From the NCBI GenBank assembly GCA_045114635.1, contig JBGUKY010000017.1:4687-68686 (forward strand): a stretch of DNA of 64,000 nt, read 5' to 3'. The notes beneath the pieces were generated by a model, which worked only from the letters and a program-made list of their open reading frames with translations, did not search any database and had not been told where the DNA came from. Shown here in pieces: positions 14,853-32,567 of the stretch. Each line of letters begins with the position of its first letter. The first letter of the stretch is position 1. Origin of the DNA: Candidatus Enterousia sp. (GTDB lineage Bacteria > Pseudomonadota > Alphaproteobacteria > Rs-D84). The translations under genes and the position numbers were made by a program.

Positions 14853-14942
14853 GGATGGTTGGCAGAGCGGTCGAATGCGGCGGTCTTGAAAACCGTTGAC
14901 GGGGCAACTCGTCCGGGGGTTCGAATCCCTCACCATCCGCCA
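14853..14942 (+). tRNA. tRNA-Ser(UGA), long variable arm, encoded CCA
   Basis: Acceptor GGATGGT/ACCATCC, anticodon loop CTTGAAA, T-arm GGTTCGAATCC. Confidence 0.9.
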
Positions 14943-15175: not shown

Positions 15176-16621
15176 TTGGATAATTTGATTAAACCCAAAG
15201 TATTTATTTCTTATAGTTGGTCTAACAAAGAATATGAAAAAAGAATTATGGGAATAGTTGATGCATTAAGAGATGCCGGCATAGATACGGTTTTTGACAA
15301 ATATAATTTAAAAGAAGGCGCAGACCTGAATGTGTTTATGGAAAAAATTGTTAATGATGCTAGTATAACCAAGGTATTAATTTTTTGCGACAAACAGTAC
15401 ACAGAAAAAGCAGATAACAGAAAAGGCGGTGCTGGAACCGAGACATTGATTATATCTCCAAAAGTTTATAATGATACCGATCCGGCCGGAGAAAATAAAA
15501 AATTCATCCCTATAGTCATGGAAAAAGACACAGAAACCGGAGAACCGTATATCCCTATTTATATGACCAGTCGCAAATATTTTGATTTTACAAAACCAAA
15601 TTTTCCTGACGAATTTGAAAAACTTGTAAGGTTTCTATATGGACAATCTGAATATAGAGAGCCGGCTTTGGGACAAGTTCCGTCATATGTCACGGATTTT
15701 AAAAGACCTTATTTTGGCACCACTACAAGAAAAGAGCTTGCAATAAATGCCTTAAAAGAAGAGAAACTATCGGTTTTAAGGTATTGTGAAGATTTCTTTT
15801 CTAAAGTGTATGAGACATTGGATGGTTTTATTATTGATACAGACAAAGAAAAAGTTGATGAGGTAGACGAAGTTGTTTGGAATCATGTTAATGATTTATT
15901 GCCGTTAAGCAGAGATTGTATAGATGTTTTGGAAACAATGATTACTTGCAACAAAAACGAATCTACTGTTAATTGTATCCATAATTTTTTAGAAAAATTA
16001 TTAACATATCGAGAAAAAGCAAAAGGAAACAGACGAATAGATTACCAATCTGATCATTTTCATTTCTTTGTTTATTATTTGTACATGAATTTAGTTAAAT
16101 TTTTAATAACGAAAAATAATTTTGAATTATTAAAACATTTTTTACATAATTATTATATTCGTAATAAATATGTCAATTCAAAATTACAGAATTTCTCCAC
16201 TTTCTATCCGAACACAAGAGCATTTGAAGTACGTAAATCAAAATTACAACTCAATAGACGATCTTTATTGGCAGATCTTTTAAAACAAGGTTGTAAAGAT
16301 GATGAAATAGAAATGGATAATATAATGCAGGCAGACTTATTATTAAAAATGTATGCTTGTAAGGAAGAAAAAAACGAAAGAATTTTTTGGTATCCTGTGT
16401 CTTTGGTATATGCAGAAATGCGAGAACAACCTTTCGAATTGTTTGTTCGTGCAGAGTCAAAAGAATTCTTTAATAACACATTGGGTGTATTAGGATTTAA
16501 TCGGGAAAATTTGGAAAATATCAAAAAACAGCTTTCTGAATTAAGTAGATATAGTTATCATCTTGGTTGGATAGAACCATTACAATTATCCAATATTGAT
16601 AATCTTGCAACAAAAGATTAG
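15176..16621 (+). CDS. TIR/SEFIR-like domain protein with ~340-aa uncharacterised helical C-terminal domain
   Basis: KVFISYSWSNKEYEKRI..VLIFCDKQYTEKADNRKGGAGTE is a bacterial TIR-like layout. TTG start with an AGGAG RBS 7 nt upstream. Confidence 0.75.
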   Translation: MDNLIKPKVFISYSWSNKEYEKRIMGIVDALRDAGIDTVFDKYNLKEGADLNVFMEKIVNDASITKVLIFCDKQYTEKADNRKGGAGTETLIISPKVYNDTDPAGENKKFIPIVMEKDTETGEPYIPIYMTSRKYFDFTKPNFPDEFEKLVRFLYGQSEYREPALGQVPSYVTDFKRPYFGTTTRKELAINALKEEKLSVLRYCEDFFSKVYETLDGFIIDTDKEKVDEVDEVVWNHVNDLLPLSRDCIDVLETMITCNKNESTVNCIHNFLEKLLTYREKAKGNRRIDYQSDHFHFFVYYLYMNLVKFLITKNNFELLKHFLHNYYIRNKYVNSKLQNFSTFYPNTRAFEVRKSKLQLNRRSLLADLLKQGCKDDEIEMDNIMQADLLLKMYACKEEKNERIFWYPVSLVYAEMREQPFELFVRAESKEFFNNTLGVLGFNRENLENIKKQLSELSRYSYHLGWIEPLQLSNIDNLATKD

Positions 16622-16633
16622 AAGCATTATTCA

Positions 16634-18223
16634 TTATATTGATGCTTCTTTCGCAATCTGAAACAAATCATTAACGTTGGTTTTTAATTTCCCAGACAAG
16701 ATTTGATTTATCTTGTCTGGGTTCATATACGCAATATTCAGATAACGATAAAACTGGCGAGATGAAGTGTGATTATTACGTATAACGTTATCTACATTGC
16801 CGTCTTGTTCATATAATTCACGATACTTCCATGCGGTGGCAAAAGCTTTTAGAATCAGATGGTTGTTGTCGGTGACATTTAGAACGCCATTTTTACCACG
16901 GTCGTATGTTGGGTTCACGTATTTTCGCAGAAACACTTTTTCAGTAATTGTTATGCTGTTGTCGCCAATTATATACTCCATTGGTTCTGTGTTTTGATTC
17001 ACATAATTTTCTGTTATAAAAGGTTGTAATTTGGCCGTATCGGTCGTAATTGTATAAATCAGATGCTCTTGAGAATATACAACTTTCTCAATCAGCGCTT
17101 GAATCAAATCGCGCTTTTGCGTATACGTCATATTTGCTATATCTATGCGTTTCAATATAGTGGCCAAATTGATGGGCAGATTAGACATATCACTATCCAG
17201 AAAATCCGTTATAGTTTTTATCGCTATTTCATCCACGCGTGTCGCGGTTAGATAGAACCCCTTAGTCGCGTAATAATACGCGGTCTTTTTGCCTTTACCA
17301 CTGGTGCGTTGGTTTATAAATTTCACACCATTGTGATTAAATAATTTGCCAGTCAATATATTTGGTGCTCGTGTACTCGGCGATTTGTTGTTGGAATTAT
17401 TAGCCAGCGCAATTTGGACACGATTAAATAGTTCTGTAGAAATAATCGGTTCGTGTTCACCTTTTGCGAAAGTGCCTTCTTTTTTATTTTCAATTTGACC
17501 GATGTAAACTTTATCCCGCAGAATGCGATGCATACTCATTTTAGCAATAGGATTGCCACCACGTATTTTTCGTTTATTGGTTTCCCACCGTTTGCCATAT
17601 ATACCATTTTGCCGTGCGTATTCAGTTAAATCATTCACAGATTGCAGTTCTAGATATTTTTCAAACAAATGTCGTACTTGTTCTGCTTCGGTTGGGTTTA
17701 CTACCAATTTTTTGTTTATCAGGTCGTAACCCAGCCGTGGCGCACCACCCATCCATAACCCCTTAGCCTTTGATGCGCGGATTTTATCACGCACACGTTC
17801 ACTTGATACTTCACGTTCGAACTGTGCGAATGATAACAGCATATTAAGTGTTAGTTTACCCATAGATGTACTGGTATCAAATGACTGGGTAATAGACACG
17901 AAATTGGCACCATATTTTTCAAAATATTTCATCATATTGTGGAAATCCAAGATTGAACGCGATAATCGATCAACCTTATACACTACCACTGTATTTACTA
18001 ACCCATGTGCCATATCATCCAACATTTGTTTTAATGCAGGCCGTTCCATAGTCCCGCCAGAAATCGCCGCATCACTGTAAGTCTTGTAATATTGCCAACC
18101 ATTAAACGATTGTGATGCTATATATGCCTTGCACGATTCTTCCTGGTTCTGCAAGGAATTAAACTCCTGTTCCAATCCGTGTTCAGTTGATTTGCGTGTA
18201 TAAATAGCGCATTTAATTGTCAT
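16634..18223 (-). CDS. Large serine recombinase
   Basis: CAIYTRKSTE..SLQNQ catalytic-Ser N-terminal resolvase domain, VYKVDRLSRS, and a long recombinase/zinc-beta-ribbon-type C-terminal extension (529 aa). Confidence 0.9.
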   Translation of the reverse strand: MTIKCAIYTRKSTEHGLEQEFNSLQNQEESCKAYIASQSFNGWQYYKTYSDAAISGGTMERPALKQMLDDMAHGLVNTVVVYKVDRLSRSILDFHNMMKYFEKYGANFVSITQSFDTSTSMGKLTLNMLLSFAQFEREVSSERVRDKIRASKAKGLWMGGAPRLGYDLINKKLVVNPTEAEQVRHLFEKYLELQSVNDLTEYARQNGIYGKRWETNKRKIRGGNPIAKMSMHRILRDKVYIGQIENKKEGTFAKGEHEPIISTELFNRVQIALANNSNNKSPSTRAPNILTGKLFNHNGVKFINQRTSGKGKKTAYYYATKGFYLTATRVDEIAIKTITDFLDSDMSNLPINLATILKRIDIANMTYTQKRDLIQALIEKVVYSQEHLIYTITTDTAKLQPFITENYVNQNTEPMEYIIGDNSITITEKVFLRKYVNPTYDRGKNGVLNVTDNNHLILKAFATAWKYRELYEQDGNVDNVIRNNHTSSRQFYRYLNIAYMNPDKINQILSGKLKTNVNDLFQIAKEASI

Positions 18224-21113: not shown

Positions 21114-21167
21114 GTAATCCTGCCTAGCAATTTTTGTGCGAACTGTTGTTCGTACTATGGATGAAAA

Positions 21168-21213
21168 ATCGACTGATGATGTTTAAAAGGCATCATTGGT
21201 CGATTTTTTTATT
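21168..21213 (+). terminator. Intrinsic-terminator-like hairpin inside the target gene leader
   Basis: ATCGACTGATGATG / CATCATTGGTCGAT 14-bp stem (2 G-U pairs), followed by TTTTTTTATTT and ending 26 nt before the ATG. Confidence 0.5.
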
Positions 21214-21238
21214 TAACAAACAACCAAAGGAAGGAAAA

Positions 21239-22537
21239 ATGAATAAAAAAATAATCTTAACCAGTTTTATCGCATTGGGCTTTGCGTGTCCAGCGATGGC
21301 GGAACCATCACATACTGATGAATTTCCGTCAAATGGTTTGATGCAAGAAGACTATACATATACAAATTCTGCCAATGAAACAAACATGGCGGGTGTATCT
21401 GGTCATAATGCCACGGTATATGCAAACGCACTTTATAGTAATGCTTCATATGCTGTTGTTGCTGGTGAATATTTGCCGGCAGACGCAGAAGTTGTTGCAA
21501 CATGTACTGCTGGTTCTTTCTGTCCGGGTGGCCAAAGTTATGGTTATAATGCAACAACAGCCCAAGGTATAACAGCGTGTTCTACAGTTGGTGATAATTC
21601 ATTTACTTTATCTGCGGCTGGTGCATCGGCAAATACAGATTGTTATAAAGCTTGTAATATAGCAAATATGGGCCAAGGTGGTTCAATTGCAGATATTCCA
21701 CACGCTGCATCATTAACAGGAAACGATTATTATGGAAACGGTACCGATACTTGTGAACCGGCAACTTGTGTAACAGGATGGCATGTTAAAGATGGTTTAA
21801 ATGTTGCAACAGAAATCGGTACTACAGCTGGTGTAAACAGTGCTTATGTAAATAATTCTGGAACATTTGGTGAAACAGATGCTAATTTCAGTTCTGGAAA
21901 TAATGGTGCGGCCTATTATGGATTAAGTACAAGTAATCATAACACGTGGGCTGTAGAATATGATGGCAAAGGTATAGTTGTTGGTCAAGGTCGTTGTTCT
22001 ACTCGTGGGGTAACAACACCATGGTATGAGACATATGATGAATCAACAGATAGTTATACAGTTCCATCTGATAACATTGTATCAAGTTTAACAGACGAAA
22101 CGGGTCAAACTGGTGCACAATATTGTTATTGTAATGTAACAGGATATAAAGCAAGCAGTAGCTCTGCTTTGCAAAGCTTGTCTTCTTCGTGGGTGTTCCG
22201 GAGCGTTTACGGCGACGCGTCGGATTGCGCTTCGGACTGCGCTTACGACTGTGCGGACAACATGCGTGACACGAGCTCGAGCAGCCTTGCGTTCCGTGGC
22301 GCGTTGCTCGGTTCTGTTGGCGCCTTGCCGGCGAGCTGTGAAGTTAATACAATTAACATTAGTTGGGATGGTGCAACCGCAGCTGCGGTCAGTGCTAATA
22401 ACGCCGCAAGCGTTACATACGGTGGCGATATCAGAACTCCTAAGTCCGCGATACATGTCAAAGGTAAAGTATTCGACGGTTGGGAATTCAGTACAACCGC
22501 ACCGGTCAGCCCGGTTACCGAACCGGTTCAACAATAA
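21239..22537 (+). CDS. DGR target protein: secreted, Cys-rich N-terminal region, C-type-lectin-like variable region, C-terminal Listeria-Bacteroides-repeat-like module
   Basis: Start at MNKKIILTSFIALGFACPAMA (GGAAGGA RBS). Contains the VR. The VR ends in ..LAFRGAL, like CLec/FGE-type VRs. The tail VTYGGDIRTPKSAIHVKGKVFDGWEF is Flg_new-like. Confidence 0.85.
   Translation: MNKKIILTSFIALGFACPAMAEPSHTDEFPSNGLMQEDYTYTNSANETNMAGVSGHNATVYANALYSNASYAVVAGEYLPADAEVVATCTAGSFCPGGQSYGYNATTAQGITACSTVGDNSFTLSAAGASANTDCYKACNIANMGQGGSIADIPHAASLTGNDYYGNGTDTCEPATCVTGWHVKDGLNVATEIGTTAGVNSAYVNNSGTFGETDANFSSGNNGAAYYGLSTSNHNTWAVEYDGKGIVVGQGRCSTRGVTTPWYETYDESTDSYTVPSDNIVSSLTDETGQTGAQYCYCNVTGYKASSSSALQSLSSSWVFRSVYGDASDCASDCAYDCADNMRDTSSSSLAFRGALLGSVGALPASCEVNTINISWDGATAAAVSANNAASVTYGGDIRTPKSAIHVKGKVFDGWEFSTTAPVSPVTEPVQQ
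22176..22325 (+). repeat. DGR variable repeat (VR)
   Basis: 150-nt match to 24087-24236. There are 15 internal mismatches and all fall at TR adenines. GC-rich relative to the flanks. Confidence 0.92.
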
Positions 22538-22830: not shown

Positions 22831-23436
22831 TTGTCAAGGGACGAATTAAAGGTGCGATTAAAATATACTGCATTTTTAACATTGATGTTTGCAACGGCAA
22901 AGGCTTTTGCCGGGGTGGATGGCGTTGTTATTTCAAACGAATTTCCATCCGACAAATTGATGTTGGAAAATCATGTATATAAAAATGCAGCGGTGTTTGA
23001 AAATCTTGGTGTGTATGATGGAACGGTTTATGCAATTGCCAGATACAGAGATGTTCCATCATATTGTGAGCCAGGATATTATTTACCGGAAAACACCACC
23101 GAATGTGTAATATGTGATGAAAATCATTATTGTGTTGGTGGTGAAAATGCAGTTATGTCGCCGTGTCCAGATGGATTGGTTTCACCTGTTGGAACAACGG
23201 TTGCAGATAATTGTGGTAAGATAATGCGTGTCGGTGAAGATAAGTTGTATTTAACACAAACACAACAAACCCACCCAGCATTAGCGGTAAAAATGGATGG
23301 CAAAATTTATTATGCCAAAACAACACCAGTATCAATGGGCGTAAAACCAATGAATATAAATACAACATATTCTTTGCGCACTATGATAGAAGGCACCGAA
23401 TATTCAATACACGATAATACTATTCCGGGAGAATAA
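22831..23436 (+). CDS. Secreted Cys-rich protein, paralog of the target N-terminal region (not diversified)
   Basis: NEFPSDKLMLENHVYKN and C..G.Y.P....C..C....YC.GG resemble DEFPSNGLMQEDYTYTN and C.AGSFCPGG in the target. The start is uncertain (TTG 22831 or GTG 22852). Confidence 0.55.
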   Translation: MSRDELKVRLKYTAFLTLMFATAKAFAGVDGVVISNEFPSDKLMLENHVYKNAAVFENLGVYDGTVYAIARYRDVPSYCEPGYYLPENTTECVICDENHYCVGGENAVMSPCPDGLVSPVGTTVADNCGKIMRVGEDKLYLTQTQQTHPALAVKMDGKIYYAKTTPVSMGVKPMNINTTYSLRTMIEGTEYSIHDNTIPGE

Positions 23437-23438
23437 TA

Positions 23439-24005
23439 ATGGTTAAAAAATTGGTTTGTTTTTTATCTGTTTTGGTTATTGGTTTATCCCAAAATGCTTT
23501 TGCGGTTCCAAGTGTGAAAAAGTTGGGAAATAATAATTTAACTTCTGCAAATGTTAAGCCTGTTATAAATACATCAAACGGAAACACTGATAATAAAATA
23601 AATAACAAAGCATCAATAGCAAAGGTTGCAAAAACACCAATTGCAAAAGTAACAACAGTTTCTTCTGCGACAAATGGTCGTATCCCAGCAATAACAGGGG
23701 TTAAATCTATCAATACAAAAAAGGTACCGGTTGTTGCAAATAATGATAGCGTAAATAAACCAAACACATCTGGAGTAGGCGAAGATAAATTTAATGAAAT
23801 TGTTGAAAGAATAGAAACACTGGAAACACAAAATGAAAATGCAATAACTGATGTAGTTGAAAATGAATCTGGGACTTATGTGACGGATGTTGCGGTTGAT
23901 GGAAATAAATTAAGTGTAAATAAAACCCGCCTGTTATACGCACCGGTTCGTAACGGAAACAGTGAAGAAATATCAGGTGACGCAGAAATATGGATAGTAA
24001 AATAG
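23439..24005 (+). CDS. Secreted protein, paralog of 13961-14704
   Basis: Signal peptide ..SQNAFA then VPSVKKLGNNN. Asn/Lys-rich linker, then IVERIETLETQNENAI coiled-coil-like segment. Confidence 0.6.
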   Translation: MVKKLVCFLSVLVIGLSQNAFAVPSVKKLGNNNLTSANVKPVINTSNGNTDNKINNKASIAKVAKTPIAKVTTVSSATNGRIPAITGVKSINTKKVPVVANNDSVNKPNTSGVGEDKFNEIVERIETLETQNENAITDVVENESGTYVTDVAVDGNKLSVNKTRLLYAPVRNGNSEEISGDAEIWIVK

Positions 24006-24086: not shown

Positions 24087-24236
24087 GCTTGTCTTCTTCG
24101 TGGGTGTTCAAGAACGATAACAACGACGCGTCGAATTGCGCTTCGAACTGCGCTAACAACTGTGCGAACAACATGCGTGACACGAACTCGAACAACCTTG
24201 CGTTCCGTGGCGCGTTGCTCGGTTCTGTTGGCTCCT
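24087..24236 (+). repeat. DGR template repeat (TR)
   Basis: Non-coding copy of the VR. In the VR frame it carries 12 AAY codons (..KNDNNDASNCASNCANNCANNMRDTNSNN..). Lies 242 nt upstream of the accessory ORF and RT. Confidence 0.92.
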
Positions 24237-24403
24237 GGTGACAAAAGTTTTGCTGACCTGTGGGACAAAGTGTACAAACACTTTTCAGATGTGAAAGAGG
24301 CATCTGTTTTATAAATTGTGCCGTTTTGTAACTAAGGCGGGGTGATGTAACCTGTTTAGATGCGATGAAAAAAAGTTGCATCTCTACGAATACATTAAGC
24401 AGG

Positions 24404-24447
24404 GAACATCTGGGTTGGTAACCGTTCGGCGAAGACCCCGGATGTTC
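24404..24447 (+). other. Stem-loop in the TR-to-accessory-gene spacer
   Basis: GAACATCTGGG / CCCGGATGTTC 11-bp stem with a 22-nt loop. The stem sequence is nearly identical to the hairpin at 14951-14981. Confidence 0.5.
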
Positions 24448-24477
24448 GATTGTTAATAAAATGGAGAGAGAAAAACC

Positions 24478-24804
24478 ATGACCATTGATGAAATCAAGCG
24501 TTTGAATACTGATGCGCTTGAAAGCTTTTCGGTGTTTGCACATGATAAATTACCAATGCCTGGAAAGAAAAAGAGATTGGATGAAATCTTGGATAAGGTT
24601 ATTTCAGTGGTCGATTTCAGAATTACCAAATCTAACAAGCGTGAAAATTCTGACTGTTTACAAATTCAATTCGTTTTGGATAATGAAGTTTATGTTTTGT
24701 TTACTGGCAGTGTGGTTTTAATTGACCAAATACAATCTGTAAAAGAAAAATTGCCCTTTAAAACAACTATTGTAAAAATTGATAAATATTATTCTTTCTC
24801 GTAA
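24478..24804 (+). CDS. Small DGR-associated accessory ORF in the avd position, not Avd-like by eye
   Basis: 108 aa with a GGAGAGAG RBS. It ends 7 nt before the RT start. Beta-rich-looking segment VVDFRITKSNKRENSDCLQIQFVLDNEVYVLFTGSVVL. Confidence 0.55.
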   Translation: MTIDEIKRLNTDALESFSVFAHDKLPMPGKKKRLDEILDKVISVVDFRITKSNKRENSDCLQIQFVLDNEVYVLFTGSVVLIDQIQSVKEKLPFKTTIVKIDKYYSFS

Positions 24805-24810
24805 AAATTT

Positions 24811-25842
24811 ATGAAACGGTATAAACATCTTTGGGATGATTTTATTTCTATGGAAAATTTGGAATTAGCTGCGAGAAAAGCAGTTAAATCTAAGAAATCA
24901 AGATGGCAATCCCGTGTCTTTGAAGCAAATAAGAAAGATTTCTTGCTTCAATTACAACAAATGTTAATTGATGGAAAATTTAATACTTCGGAATACAGAA
25001 TACGAAGAATATTTGAACCAAAAGAAAGATTGATTTATATTTTACCACTTTATCCGGACCATATTGTACATCATGCGTTAATAAATATTCTTGGACCGAT
25101 TTGGCAAAGTACTTTTATTCGTGATTCTTATGCTTGTATTCCAGGCAAAGGATTACACAAGGCATCTCATGCTATTATGCATTTTATTCGGCGTAATAAA
25201 TATGTTTTACAATGTGATATTCGTAAATTTTATCCGTCCATTAACCATGAATTTATGTTCAAAATTCTGAAAAAGAAAATTGCTGATAAAAGATTGTTGG
25301 ATGTTTTACATAATATTATTTGGTCGTGTGGTGGTGATTCTAATTTGCCAATTGGAAATCTGACTTCACAATGGATGGGCAATGTTTATTTGAATGAACT
25401 GGACCATTTTGTAAAAGAACAATTACATTGTAAAGATTATATTCGGTATTGTGATGATTTCTGTTTGTTCGCAAATGATAAAGAAATCTTGCGTGAATAT
25501 AAAAGAAAATTGGAAGTGTTTATCAATGAAAAATTAAAACTGATTTTTTCTAAGTCTGCAATATATCCAACATCTCGTGGAATCAGTTTTATTGGGTATC
25601 GTCACTTTAAGAAATTTATAATGTTGCGTAAATATGGTGCTAGTAAAATGCGAAGAAGAATTTTAAATATCGCAATTCATAATGATACTTCTGAATGGGC
25701 TGTGGGGCAATTGGCTTCGTATCGTGGTTGGGCAAAATGGTGTTGCAGTTATAATTTTCTTATTGATTTATGTACGCAAGCAAGTTTGATATCACATGAC
25801 AGTGCAAGCTTTATTTATCACAAAATATTCAAAGACGAATAG
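24811..25842 (+). CDS. DGR-type reverse transcriptase
   Basis: RT motifs: QCDIRKFYPSINH, LPIGNLTSQWMGNVYLN (the [ILV]GxxxSQ hallmark of DGR RTs), YIRYCDDFCLF (YxDD), and SFIGYR. Confidence 0.92.
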   Translation: MKRYKHLWDDFISMENLELAARKAVKSKKSRWQSRVFEANKKDFLLQLQQMLIDGKFNTSEYRIRRIFEPKERLIYILPLYPDHIVHHALINILGPIWQSTFIRDSYACIPGKGLHKASHAIMHFIRRNKYVLQCDIRKFYPSINHEFMFKILKKKIADKRLLDVLHNIIWSCGGDSNLPIGNLTSQWMGNVYLNELDHFVKEQLHCKDYIRYCDDFCLFANDKEILREYKRKLEVFINEKLKLIFSKSAIYPTSRGISFIGYRHFKKFIMLRKYGASKMRRRILNIAIHNDTSEWAVGQLASYRGWAKWCCSYNFLIDLCTQASLISHDSASFIYHKIFKDE

Positions 25843-25853
25843 TGTGATAATTG

Positions 25854-27335
25854 TTAAAACATTCCCCTGCGACCACTGATGTGTTCGTTATCAATGTAAA
25901 TAATTCCTTGTGAAAAAGCATCGCATTGGTCTTTGAATACACTTCCTGGGAATGCCAATAATTCTTTTTCAAAATCTGGCCACCATGGTCCTGCATTGTT
26001 TGGAAATAATATCGTTCCTTCGGCAATTAAAGACGTTGTTGCTTCCAATCTGCTTTCTTTATCTCGTTCTGCTTTGATTCCAACAAATGGTGGCGAACCA
26101 AATACATGTGTTGATTTATAATCTCTGCCGACTTGTTGTATAAGTTGTGTACCAGACGAAGCGTCTTCTATCAACGTTTTTACATTACAATAACCAAACT
26201 TTGTTCGTGCCATATCTTCATATTTTTTTTGAAACCCTAAAACTTTATCGTGTAATTCTGGGTATTCTAATCTTGCACGGAATACTTCCATTAAATATAC
26301 TCTGCGTTCTGATTTGTAATATTCTACCCCAAACACACAACATGCAGAATATGCGCAATTATCACCTAATTTTGACGCTGTGTCCCACGATATGTAAATG
26401 TGTATTATTTTGGGTGGCAATTCTTGGTAATAATGCATCCAATCTGATTTCACTAAACCGCCTTCCGTTGGTATAGGTTTTTGTTGGTACTGTCCTGCAA
26501 AAGAATAAGGTCCCAATGCATTGCGCAAACCATCAAGTGTTTCTGGCCCTTCACGATCTGGATGCAGTAATTCGTCTTTTTTACGTTTTATTACACGCAT
26601 TTCGCCGGTATATTTATTTGGGAAAGACCAATCTTCATCTTCTTCCGCAATCAATGGCATTCGTATAAGTTTATAACCTGCATCTAGTTCCGTTAAAAAA
26701 CCGGTAAAATCCATTAAATGTAAACGCTGCATTATTACCAATATACGACCAGTATTTTTATTATTAAGACGTGAATAAAGTGTGCTTTTATACCAATTGT
26801 TTGGTCTTGCACGCAATGTGTCAGAACGAGCTTCATCTGCCTTTAATGGATCGTCTATGATAATCCAATCACCACCTATACCTGTTAATGGTCCGCCAAC
26901 AGATGTTGCAAAACGTCCACCATTACGCGTAGTTCCAAAATCTGTCGTTGAACAATGTTTGGGATCTATTACTGTACGCGGAAACAGTTCTTTATACCAA
27001 CCGCTTGTCATAACTATTTTACAATCATTGGATAACTTTTTTACTAAGTCATCACCATAACTGACACAAATAATTCTTGTTGATGGGTCAAGACCCAACA
27101 AAAATGCTGGTAATGCAACTGAACAGATGATGGATTTCATATTACGTGGCGGAATATTTATTATCAACTTGGTGTTTTTGCCATCAATCATCTGTTCTAT
27201 TTCATTACAAATCACATCTACATGCCAATTATCCATGTATATGTCTTTACCTGAAACTGTATTAAATACTTTTATACAAAATGCTTTAAAATCAGTTCTC
27301 AGTATTGCTGGTAAGATGTTTTGATTTAAATCCAT
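25854..27335 (-). CDS. Phage terminase large subunit
   Basis: LIINIPPRNMKS Walker A-like region, WIIIDDPLKADEA Walker B, and a C-terminal nuclease region ending ..DQCDAFSQG. Confidence 0.85.
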   Translation of the reverse strand: MDLNQNILPAILRTDFKAFCIKVFNTVSGKDIYMDNWHVDVICNEIEQMIDGKNTKLIINIPPRNMKSIICSVALPAFLLGLDPSTRIICVSYGDDLVKKLSNDCKIVMTSGWYKELFPRTVIDPKHCSTTDFGTTRNGGRFATSVGGPLTGIGGDWIIIDDPLKADEARSDTLRARPNNWYKSTLYSRLNNKNTGRILVIMQRLHLMDFTGFLTELDAGYKLIRMPLIAEEDEDWSFPNKYTGEMRVIKRKKDELLHPDREGPETLDGLRNALGPYSFAGQYQQKPIPTEGGLVKSDWMHYYQELPPKIIHIYISWDTASKLGDNCAYSACCVFGVEYYKSERRVYLMEVFRARLEYPELHDKVLGFQKKYEDMARTKFGYCNVKTLIEDASSGTQLIQQVGRDYKSTHVFGSPPFVGIKAERDKESRLEATTSLIAEGTILFPNNAGPWWPDFEKELLAFPGSVFKDQCDAFSQGIIYIDNEHISGRRGMF

Positions 27336-32547: not shown

Positions 32548-32567
32548 AATCCCTCACCATCCGCCAG
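32548..32567 (+). repeat. attR core (displaced tRNA-Ser 3' end)
   Basis: Identical to 14924-14943 and followed by what appears to be the original tRNA terminator. Confidence 0.8.

Follow-up and report, generated by a model that had tools for sequence, protein, structure and literature searches.

Between the template repeat (TR) and the reverse transcriptase (RT) gene of a DGR cassette found in Candidatus Enterousia sp. lies a small open reading frame (ORF) of 108 codons, and the question that this locus raises is what the encoded protein is and what it may be doing beside a DGR RT. One would think first of Avd, the accessory variability determinant, which is encoded by gene bbp7 of Bordetella phage BPP-1 and is a pentameric, PF05635-like four-helix bundle. 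The initial annotation of the window, by which we mean the whole stretch of 64,000 nucleotides that was analysed (contig JBGUKY010000017.1), had indeed placed the ORF in an ‘avd slot’. It had also judged by eye that the protein does not resemble Avd, and had suggested that it may be a distinct class of DGR accessory factor.

The DGR cassette and its surroundings

The element in the window is a textbook DGR. Its target gene (21134-22537, + strand), which encodes 467 amino acids if read from the first TTG, contains the variable repeat (VR; 22176-22325, +), a 150-nt direct repeat of the TR (24087-24236, +) with 89% identity. The TR has 31 adenines; 15 of the 16 mismatches between the two repeats are at TR adenines (A>G in 11 cases, A>T in 3 and A>C in 1), and each of the 16 affects the first or second position of a codon in the target frame. 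The adenine pattern is found inside the target ORF, and the RT (24811-25842, +; 343 aa) belongs to the DGR clade: it matches phrog_1423 (E 4e-99) and RVT_1 (E 8e-15) and is 34% identical to BPP-1 Brt (tblastn). In short, adenine-specific mismatches between TR and VR, the trace of past mutagenic retrohoming, are present in a cassette where no Avd was detected.

The target protein, for which no Pfam family was matched, has a signal-peptide-like stretch (MNKKIILTSFIALGFACPAMA) about 35 codons after the first TTG. Its VR is not at the C-terminus, about 70 residues more being encoded after it (22326-22537, +); in C-type-lectin-type DGR targets, residues beyond the VR are unusual. Two further ORFs, both with signal-peptide-like N-termini, are found on the + strand between the target and the TR, at 22831-23436 (201 aa) and 23439-24005 (188 aa). 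Neither is Avd-like, the sole matches being weak ones of the first ORF to Cys-rich TNFR/ephrin-receptor-like sequences; the ORFs of the 22831-24005 interval may be passengers or further surface proteins.

The DGR is carried by an integrated island of about 17.6 kb, bounded on one side by a tRNA-Ser(UGA) gene (14853-14942, +) and on the other by a second copy, at 32548-32566, of the 19 nt at the 3′ end of this tRNA. Besides a serine recombinase (16634-18223) and a terminase remnant (25854-27335), the island genes include DUF2924, two glycosyltransferases, DUF5681, a ParB-N6 methylase and two AAA ATPases. At the tRNA-proximal end there is a gene for a 481-aa protein with an N-terminal TIR/SEFIR domain (15176-16621, +), which is a possible defence gene. 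Location on an island agrees with the uneven occurrence of the cassette in the genus, 6 of 25 species having it.

Conservation and expression of the accessory gene

The 108-aa ORF (24478-24804, +), which starts with an ATG and will be called the accessory gene, was found exactly where it had been annotated, between the TR and the RT. Judged by its conservation, it is a real gene and not a chance reading frame, because homologues abound: a word-indexed search gave 124 close ones (55-100% identity, nearly all of exactly 108 aa), from gut and rumen Alphaproteobacteria MAGs of which many are labelled Candidatus Enterousia, and a profile search against 1.84 billion cluster representatives gave 804 clusters at 50% identity with E<=1e-3, or 310 with E<=1e-10, mostly of 95-110 aa.

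A purine-rich Shine-Dalgarno sequence, GGAGAGAG, is located about 8 nt 5′ of the accessory ATG; a similar sequence was looked for ahead of the RT ATG and none is present there. The TAA stop of the accessory gene is at 24802-24804 and the RT ATG at 24811, i.e. the spacer is of 6 nt and not of 7 nt as first stated. The accompanying proposal that translation of the RT is coupled to that of the accessory gene gains support from the spacing kept among relatives. In 55 of 59 loci where the accessory gene comes first, the distance from the accessory stop to the RT start is between -4 and +24 nt, and in 15 of these the two genes share an ATGA overlap, a typical sign of translational coupling. With its 6-nt spacer and no ribosome-binding site before the RT, the window matches the coupling pattern of these loci. 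As for transcription, a promoter scan returned sites no more numerous than in shuffled sequence.

The interval between the TR and the accessory gene holds a conserved structured RNA (24240-24457, +), which begins just 3′ of the TR. In an alignment of 18 related loci, RNAalifold predicts 37 pairs in this segment, of which 18 show compensatory double changes; the structure comprises a long-range helix (CCTGY/RCAGG) and a 3′ hairpin at about 24393-24447 (GGGAACATCTGGG...CCCGGATGTTC). No Rfam family matches this RNA, in which we see the probable spacer domain of the DGR RNA. About 50 nt past the TR and within the conserved segment, a terminator-like hairpin (24286-24306, +), the stem of which covaries among relatives, is followed by a T-run, TTTTATAAAT. 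It could act as an attenuator of read-through into the accessory and RT genes, or it could be purely structural.

Sequence, predicted fold and charge of the accessory protein

The accessory protein gave no match to Pfam or NCBIfam families at E<=1, and none to PHROGs or to PDB chain sequences, whether the single sequence or a 42-sequence profile was used for the search. When the search was extended to 45 diverse members of the family, again there was no match to PF05635, HRDC (PF00570) or MutS_I (PF01624). An AlphaFold2 model built from the 42-sequence alignment, with a mean pLDDT of 88.8, has short helices within residues 3-20, strands at 41-51, 59-67 and 70-76, a helix at 79-87 and strands at 94-101 and 104-107 (DSSP). 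This agrees with the first reading by eye of a short helical N-terminal part followed by a beta core. The predicted structure is a barrel of five strands in which a helix separates strand 3 from strand 4, and b1-b2-b3-helix-b4-b5 is the strand order of the OB-fold. Foldseek comparison with the PDB yielded weak matches (E 0.05-0.4, TM 0.3-0.5), the top 50 being dominated by OB proteins and the best being HIN-200, RPA, hSSB1, RuvBL2 domain II and PrgE, all of which have an OB-fold. Among viral predicted structures, the best matches were phage proteins annotated as reverse transcriptase (E 1.2e-6 and 1.9e-6), and the next were small phage proteins labelled ssDNA-binding. The assignment of the predicted barrel to the OB-fold thus rests on its topology and on the consistency of weak fold matches.

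The residues kept in at least 95% of 213 diverse members (F17, G29, K31, S52, Q64, F75, S78, P93 and F94) sit, on the model, in the N-terminal segment, which carries the conserved F-S-x-F-A ... G-x-K pattern, in the b1-b2 loop, in b2, at the end of b3 and at the start of b4. Such a placement is compatible with a putative ligand-binding face, of which it is not proof. Charge was to be compared as well, Avd being strongly basic: the accessory protein has a pI of 7.8 and a net charge of +0.6 at pH 7, and the family a pI of 8.1 +/- 1.4 (range 5.0-10.1, with 26% of 125 diverse members below 7), as against 9.5 +/- 0.7 for published Avd proteins (PMC5758913). By sequence and by predicted fold, the accessory protein is not Avd. 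The early judgement by eye is borne out, neither profile nor fold searches having returned an Avd-like four-helix bundle.

Could a genuine Avd be encoded elsewhere? The window cassette has no other small helical ORF, and a PF05635 search of the assembly from which it comes (873 kb, 89.7% complete) detected no Avd. PF05635 is likewise absent from 24 of 32 genomes carrying the accessory gene, and no Avd appears in the Pfam tables of six family loci that were looked up. We also built a small Avd HMM from 8 PF05635 hits, which recognised an Avd-like gene in 1 of 91 family loci; as it missed the Avd of BPP-1, this is a weak negative. Altogether, the case for absence of Avd from the flanks of the loci is only moderately strong, PF05635 being a profile that misses some Avds.

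The single positive locus (L022; CADBDF010000009.1, 2250-4081) is the only one of the 91 where both an Avd-like gene and the accessory gene were detected. It consists of a TR, a 126-aa PF05635 Avd-like gene, the accessory gene and the RT, the start of which is overlapped by the accessory gene. Avd and the accessory protein can share one cassette, and maybe they are complementary and not alternatives. The notion of an ‘avd slot’ holds, therefore, as regards the position next to the TR and the RT, and fails in so far as the gene found there does not always replace Avd. The same locus bears on another idea, that the accessory protein could be a highly diverged Avd four-helix bundle. Its position beside the RT and its small size are the only points in favour of this idea, which we find scarcely credible in view of the confident beta-barrel models obtained for the protein alone and for a fusion with an RT (see below), of the lack of any match to PF05635 or to TIGR four-helix-bundle models, and of the true PF05635 gene adjoining the accessory gene in L022.

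A family linked to DGR reverse transcriptases

Whether homologues co-occur with DGR RTs in other genomes was one of the checks suggested at the outset. We assembled 91 family loci through exact-protein look-up, from a phage collection and from one genome per species (for the latter, the search used the close-family alignment), and scanned them for RT and accessory genes. A DGR-type RT is present within 150 nt and on the same strand in 78 of them, with the accessory gene first in 63 and the RT first in 15; it is farther off on the same strand in 7 loci, on the opposite strand in 3, and in the last 3 there is no RT within 4 kb. The accessory-first order is confined to an alphaproteobacterial clade that includes the window. 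In the RT-first loci the two genes usually overlap by 14-26 nt, and the carriers are phage contigs with Mtd-like targets, the archaeal viruses ANMV-1 and vir525, and MAGs labelled Nitrospirae, Bacillota, Omnitrophica, Woesearchaeota, Treponema and Saccharibacteria, among others. A PHROG, phrog_19665, is matched by 19 of 45 diverse family members (best E 7e-11); the accessory protein of the window does not reach E 0.01 against it.

Presence and absence give the same picture at closer range. Among 41 genomes, i.e. that of the window and those of the 40 nearest species, 6 have the accessory gene and in all 6 the RT adjoins it; none has the accessory gene without the RT. A seventh close RT starts 138 nt from a contig end, so that an upstream gene would be lost. 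On a maximum-likelihood tree of 58 RTs, association with the accessory gene requires 5 changes, versus 25.8 with shuffled labels; the clade with the accessory gene first falls within RT-first lineages, and the fusions described below form one supported clade. This tree is effectively unrooted and has several long branches, and we have used its clustering but not its deep order. RT-first is the widespread arrangement, and the tree, read in this manner, shows the accessory-first order of the window as derived.

In several proteins the link is covalent. The accessory domain forms the C-terminus of an RVT_1 protein in P0142 (507 aa) and in P0217, P0356, P0357 and P0358 (413-414 aa), and P0223 is a fragment of such an RT-accessory fusion; P0357 is annotated in an isolate genome, that of Labilibaculum euxinus. 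In a model of a fusion the RT and the barrel are both confident (pLDDT 92.2), and the predicted barrel has the same fold as in the stand-alone model. The best match of the RT part is the solved DGR RT of BPP-1, 8ub7_A (31% identity, TM 0.87 on the target), which has no counterpart of the extra barrel domain. The N-terminal segment of the accessory domain directly follows the RT thumb in the fusions.

The accessory family is, then, co-localised, co-inherited and sometimes fused with DGR RTs, in bacteria, in phages and in archaeal viruses. Its members did not turn out to be common phage proteins devoid of DGR association, and adjacency, fusions and presence/absence all tie them to DGR RTs. An unrelated small gene of phages or mobile elements that merely travels with DGR cassettes might still be imagined, considering that many family members are on phage contigs and that the window DGR itself is on an integrated island with phage remnants. 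We hold this to be very improbable: adjacency to the RT is kept across unrelated chromosomal, phage and archaeal-virus contexts and in two gene orders, fusions with the RT exist, and among relatives presence and absence track the RT exactly.

More serious is the idea that the accessory protein is really a C-terminal RT domain that became detached, i.e. a structural subunit that completes the polymerase (e.g. through extension of the thumb or of a DNA-binding region), and not an independent analogue of Avd. In several lineages the RT polypeptide itself ends with this domain, the accessory gene overlaps the RT 3′ end in most loci outside the Alphaproteobacteria, and the separate upstream gene is nested within RT-first lineages on the RT tree, hence derived. 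Yet the solved bRT (328 aa) and the RTs of crAss-like DGRs lacking the accessory gene are complete without such a domain, and in the great majority of the 804 clusters the gene is separate. We regard this idea as unlikely on the whole, and it differs mostly in wording from the explanation that we favour, namely a dedicated protein partner of the RT.

Some observations made on the way concern neighbouring genes. Four relatives have an extra ORF between the accessory gene and the RT (L035, 992-1279; L038, 4306-4620; L039, 4305-4622; L071, 1047-1337); it encodes an acidic, Cys-rich product of 83-95 aa with a pI of about 4.1 and a signal-peptide-like N-terminus. In other DGR phages, small ORFs that are not homologous to the family overlap the 3′ end of the RT: bbp4 of BPP-1 (L103, 3962-4210) and ORFs of cr10_1 (L102, 4013-4360) and vir215 (L104, 4002-4418). 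BPP-1 Bbp4, cr10_1 gp19802 and vir215_00063 had been considered as distant family members and were rejected (E > 0.4). It seems that unrelated small genes have repeatedly come to occupy the slot immediately after the RT. In the crAss-like phages cr53_1 (L100, 3001-4023) and cr60_1 (L101, 3001-4026), the annotated RT is interrupted, if read with table 11, by an in-frame stop, a hint of stop-codon recoding; neither Avd nor an accessory gene is annotated in the DGRs of these two phages.

Proposed role of the accessory protein

What could the accessory protein be doing? The explanation that we favour, and deem a fairly likely one, is that the 108-aa protein is a dedicated, non-Avd partner of the DGR RT that acts as a nucleic-acid-binding component of the DGR ribonucleoprotein. 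The accessory protein and the RT would be produced from one transcript, most probably by translational coupling, and the former would join the RT and the structured TR-spacer RNA in a ribonucleoprotein. Its N-terminal segment (F17-S-x-F20-A ... G29-x-K31) may tether the barrel to the RT. The barrel would bind single-stranded nucleic acid, which could be the template or spacer RNA or else the nascent adenine-mutagenised cDNA, and the protein would in this manner support either the making of the cDNA or its transfer to the VR. Avd does this job, wholly or in part, for the Bordetella phage. Binding of nucleic acid, contact with the RT and the step of action are all inferred. Points against this explanation are the weakness of the fold matches to solved OB proteins, the charge of the family, which is not uniformly basic, its pI extending over the range given above, and the six of 91 loci that have no RT within 4 kb on the strand of the accessory gene.

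Another possibility is that the protein comes into play once the cDNA has been made, protecting or annealing this single strand in the manner of an SSB and promoting its incorporation at the VR (the retrohoming step), and stays outside the RT-RNA priming complex. The predicted OB topology would suit such a function, as would the fold matches to ssDNA binders (RPA, hSSB1 and PrgE) and to phage proteins labelled ssDNA-binding, and the co-occurrence with an Avd-like gene in L022 could mean that the two proteins have separate jobs. Fusion with the RT and translational coupling suggest instead a 1:1 complex with the polymerase and not a coating protein, and we consider an action of this late kind to be quite improbable.

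A broader claim can be put forward, to which we give somewhat less than even credence: the family may be the functional counterpart of Avd, that is, an OB-fold subunit that forms, together with the RT and a spacer RNA of different structure, a second architectural class of ribonucleoprotein in a large and ancient DGR lineage of bacteria, archaea and their viruses, and its existence might explain much of the 25-40% of DGRs in which no Avd can be recognised. That fraction was 26% in the survey of Wu et al. 2018 (PMC5758913), and in the myRT study no Avd was found for 38% of the DGR RTs of complete genomes. The accessory protein is a strong candidate for a helper protein of such DGRs, and a partner of different fold that is tied to the RT, and at times fused to it, offers a concrete candidate for how they work. 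From a practical viewpoint, a model of the family would improve annotation of DGRs, since there is no Pfam model and only an unnamed PHROG. The family may also yield compact modules for targeted mutagenesis, made of two proteins or of a single fusion; tools of this type are now under construction from the Bordetella DGR system.

Comparison with known systems

Like Avd, the accessory protein is a small protein encoded beside the TR and the RT in a DGR cassette, and by analogy it is presumably needed along with the RT and the structured TR-spacer RNA. Unlike Avd, to which it has no sequence similarity, it is predicted to be a beta-barrel instead of a four-helix bundle, its pI is lower (7.8 versus 9.5 +/- 0.7), and members of its family are often fused to the RT C-terminus or overlap the RT 3′ end. 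With OB-fold binders of single-stranded nucleic acid such as bacterial and phage SSB, RPA, hSSB1, HIN-200 and RuvBL domain II it would share the five-stranded barrel and the helix that separates strands 3 and 4. It differs from them in that the profiles of SSB and of other OB Pfam families do not match it and that structural scores are weak, and in consisting, on the model, of a single barrel of about 70 residues preceded by an N-terminal segment of its own (FSxFA...GxK).

In the literature searched, which included PMC5758913, PMC4372165, PMC8867640, PMC8144416, PMC8934634, PMC10053308 and bioRxiv 2024.11.15.621889, we found no description of an OB-fold, SSB-like or beta-barrel DGR accessory protein. 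The ANMV-1 paper draws an ‘Avd’ arrow, and the name Avd-like is given there to ORFs on no other grounds than size and pI. Within the accessory family, the phage members correspond to phrog_19665, a PHROGs v4 entry of unknown function that bears no annotation and no link to DGRs.

The accessory classes published for DGRs are Avd, HRDC, MSL (MutS-like), CH1 and the tentative PAG1-4 (Wu et al. 2018, PMC5758913). Like HRDC, MSL, CH1 and PAG1-4, the accessory gene is a small alternative gene kept in a subset of DGR cassettes, some of them in Avd-less lineages. It is unlike HRDC and MSL in that its product has no HRDC (PF00570) or MutS_I (PF01624) domain. From CH1 (160-169 aa, pI 4.7 +/- 0.2) it is set apart by description, its members having about 95-110 aa and a pI of about 8. 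Set apart in this way from Avd, HRDC, MSL and CH1, it may be identical with one of the tentative PAG1-4. The suggestion of a distinct class of DGR accessory factor, made when the ORF was first noticed, is supported by the predicted non-Avd fold and by the linkage to DGR RTs. The DGR of the window carries, as we see it, a different class of accessory protein, the family of which is represented by an unnamed PHROG and by no Pfam model.
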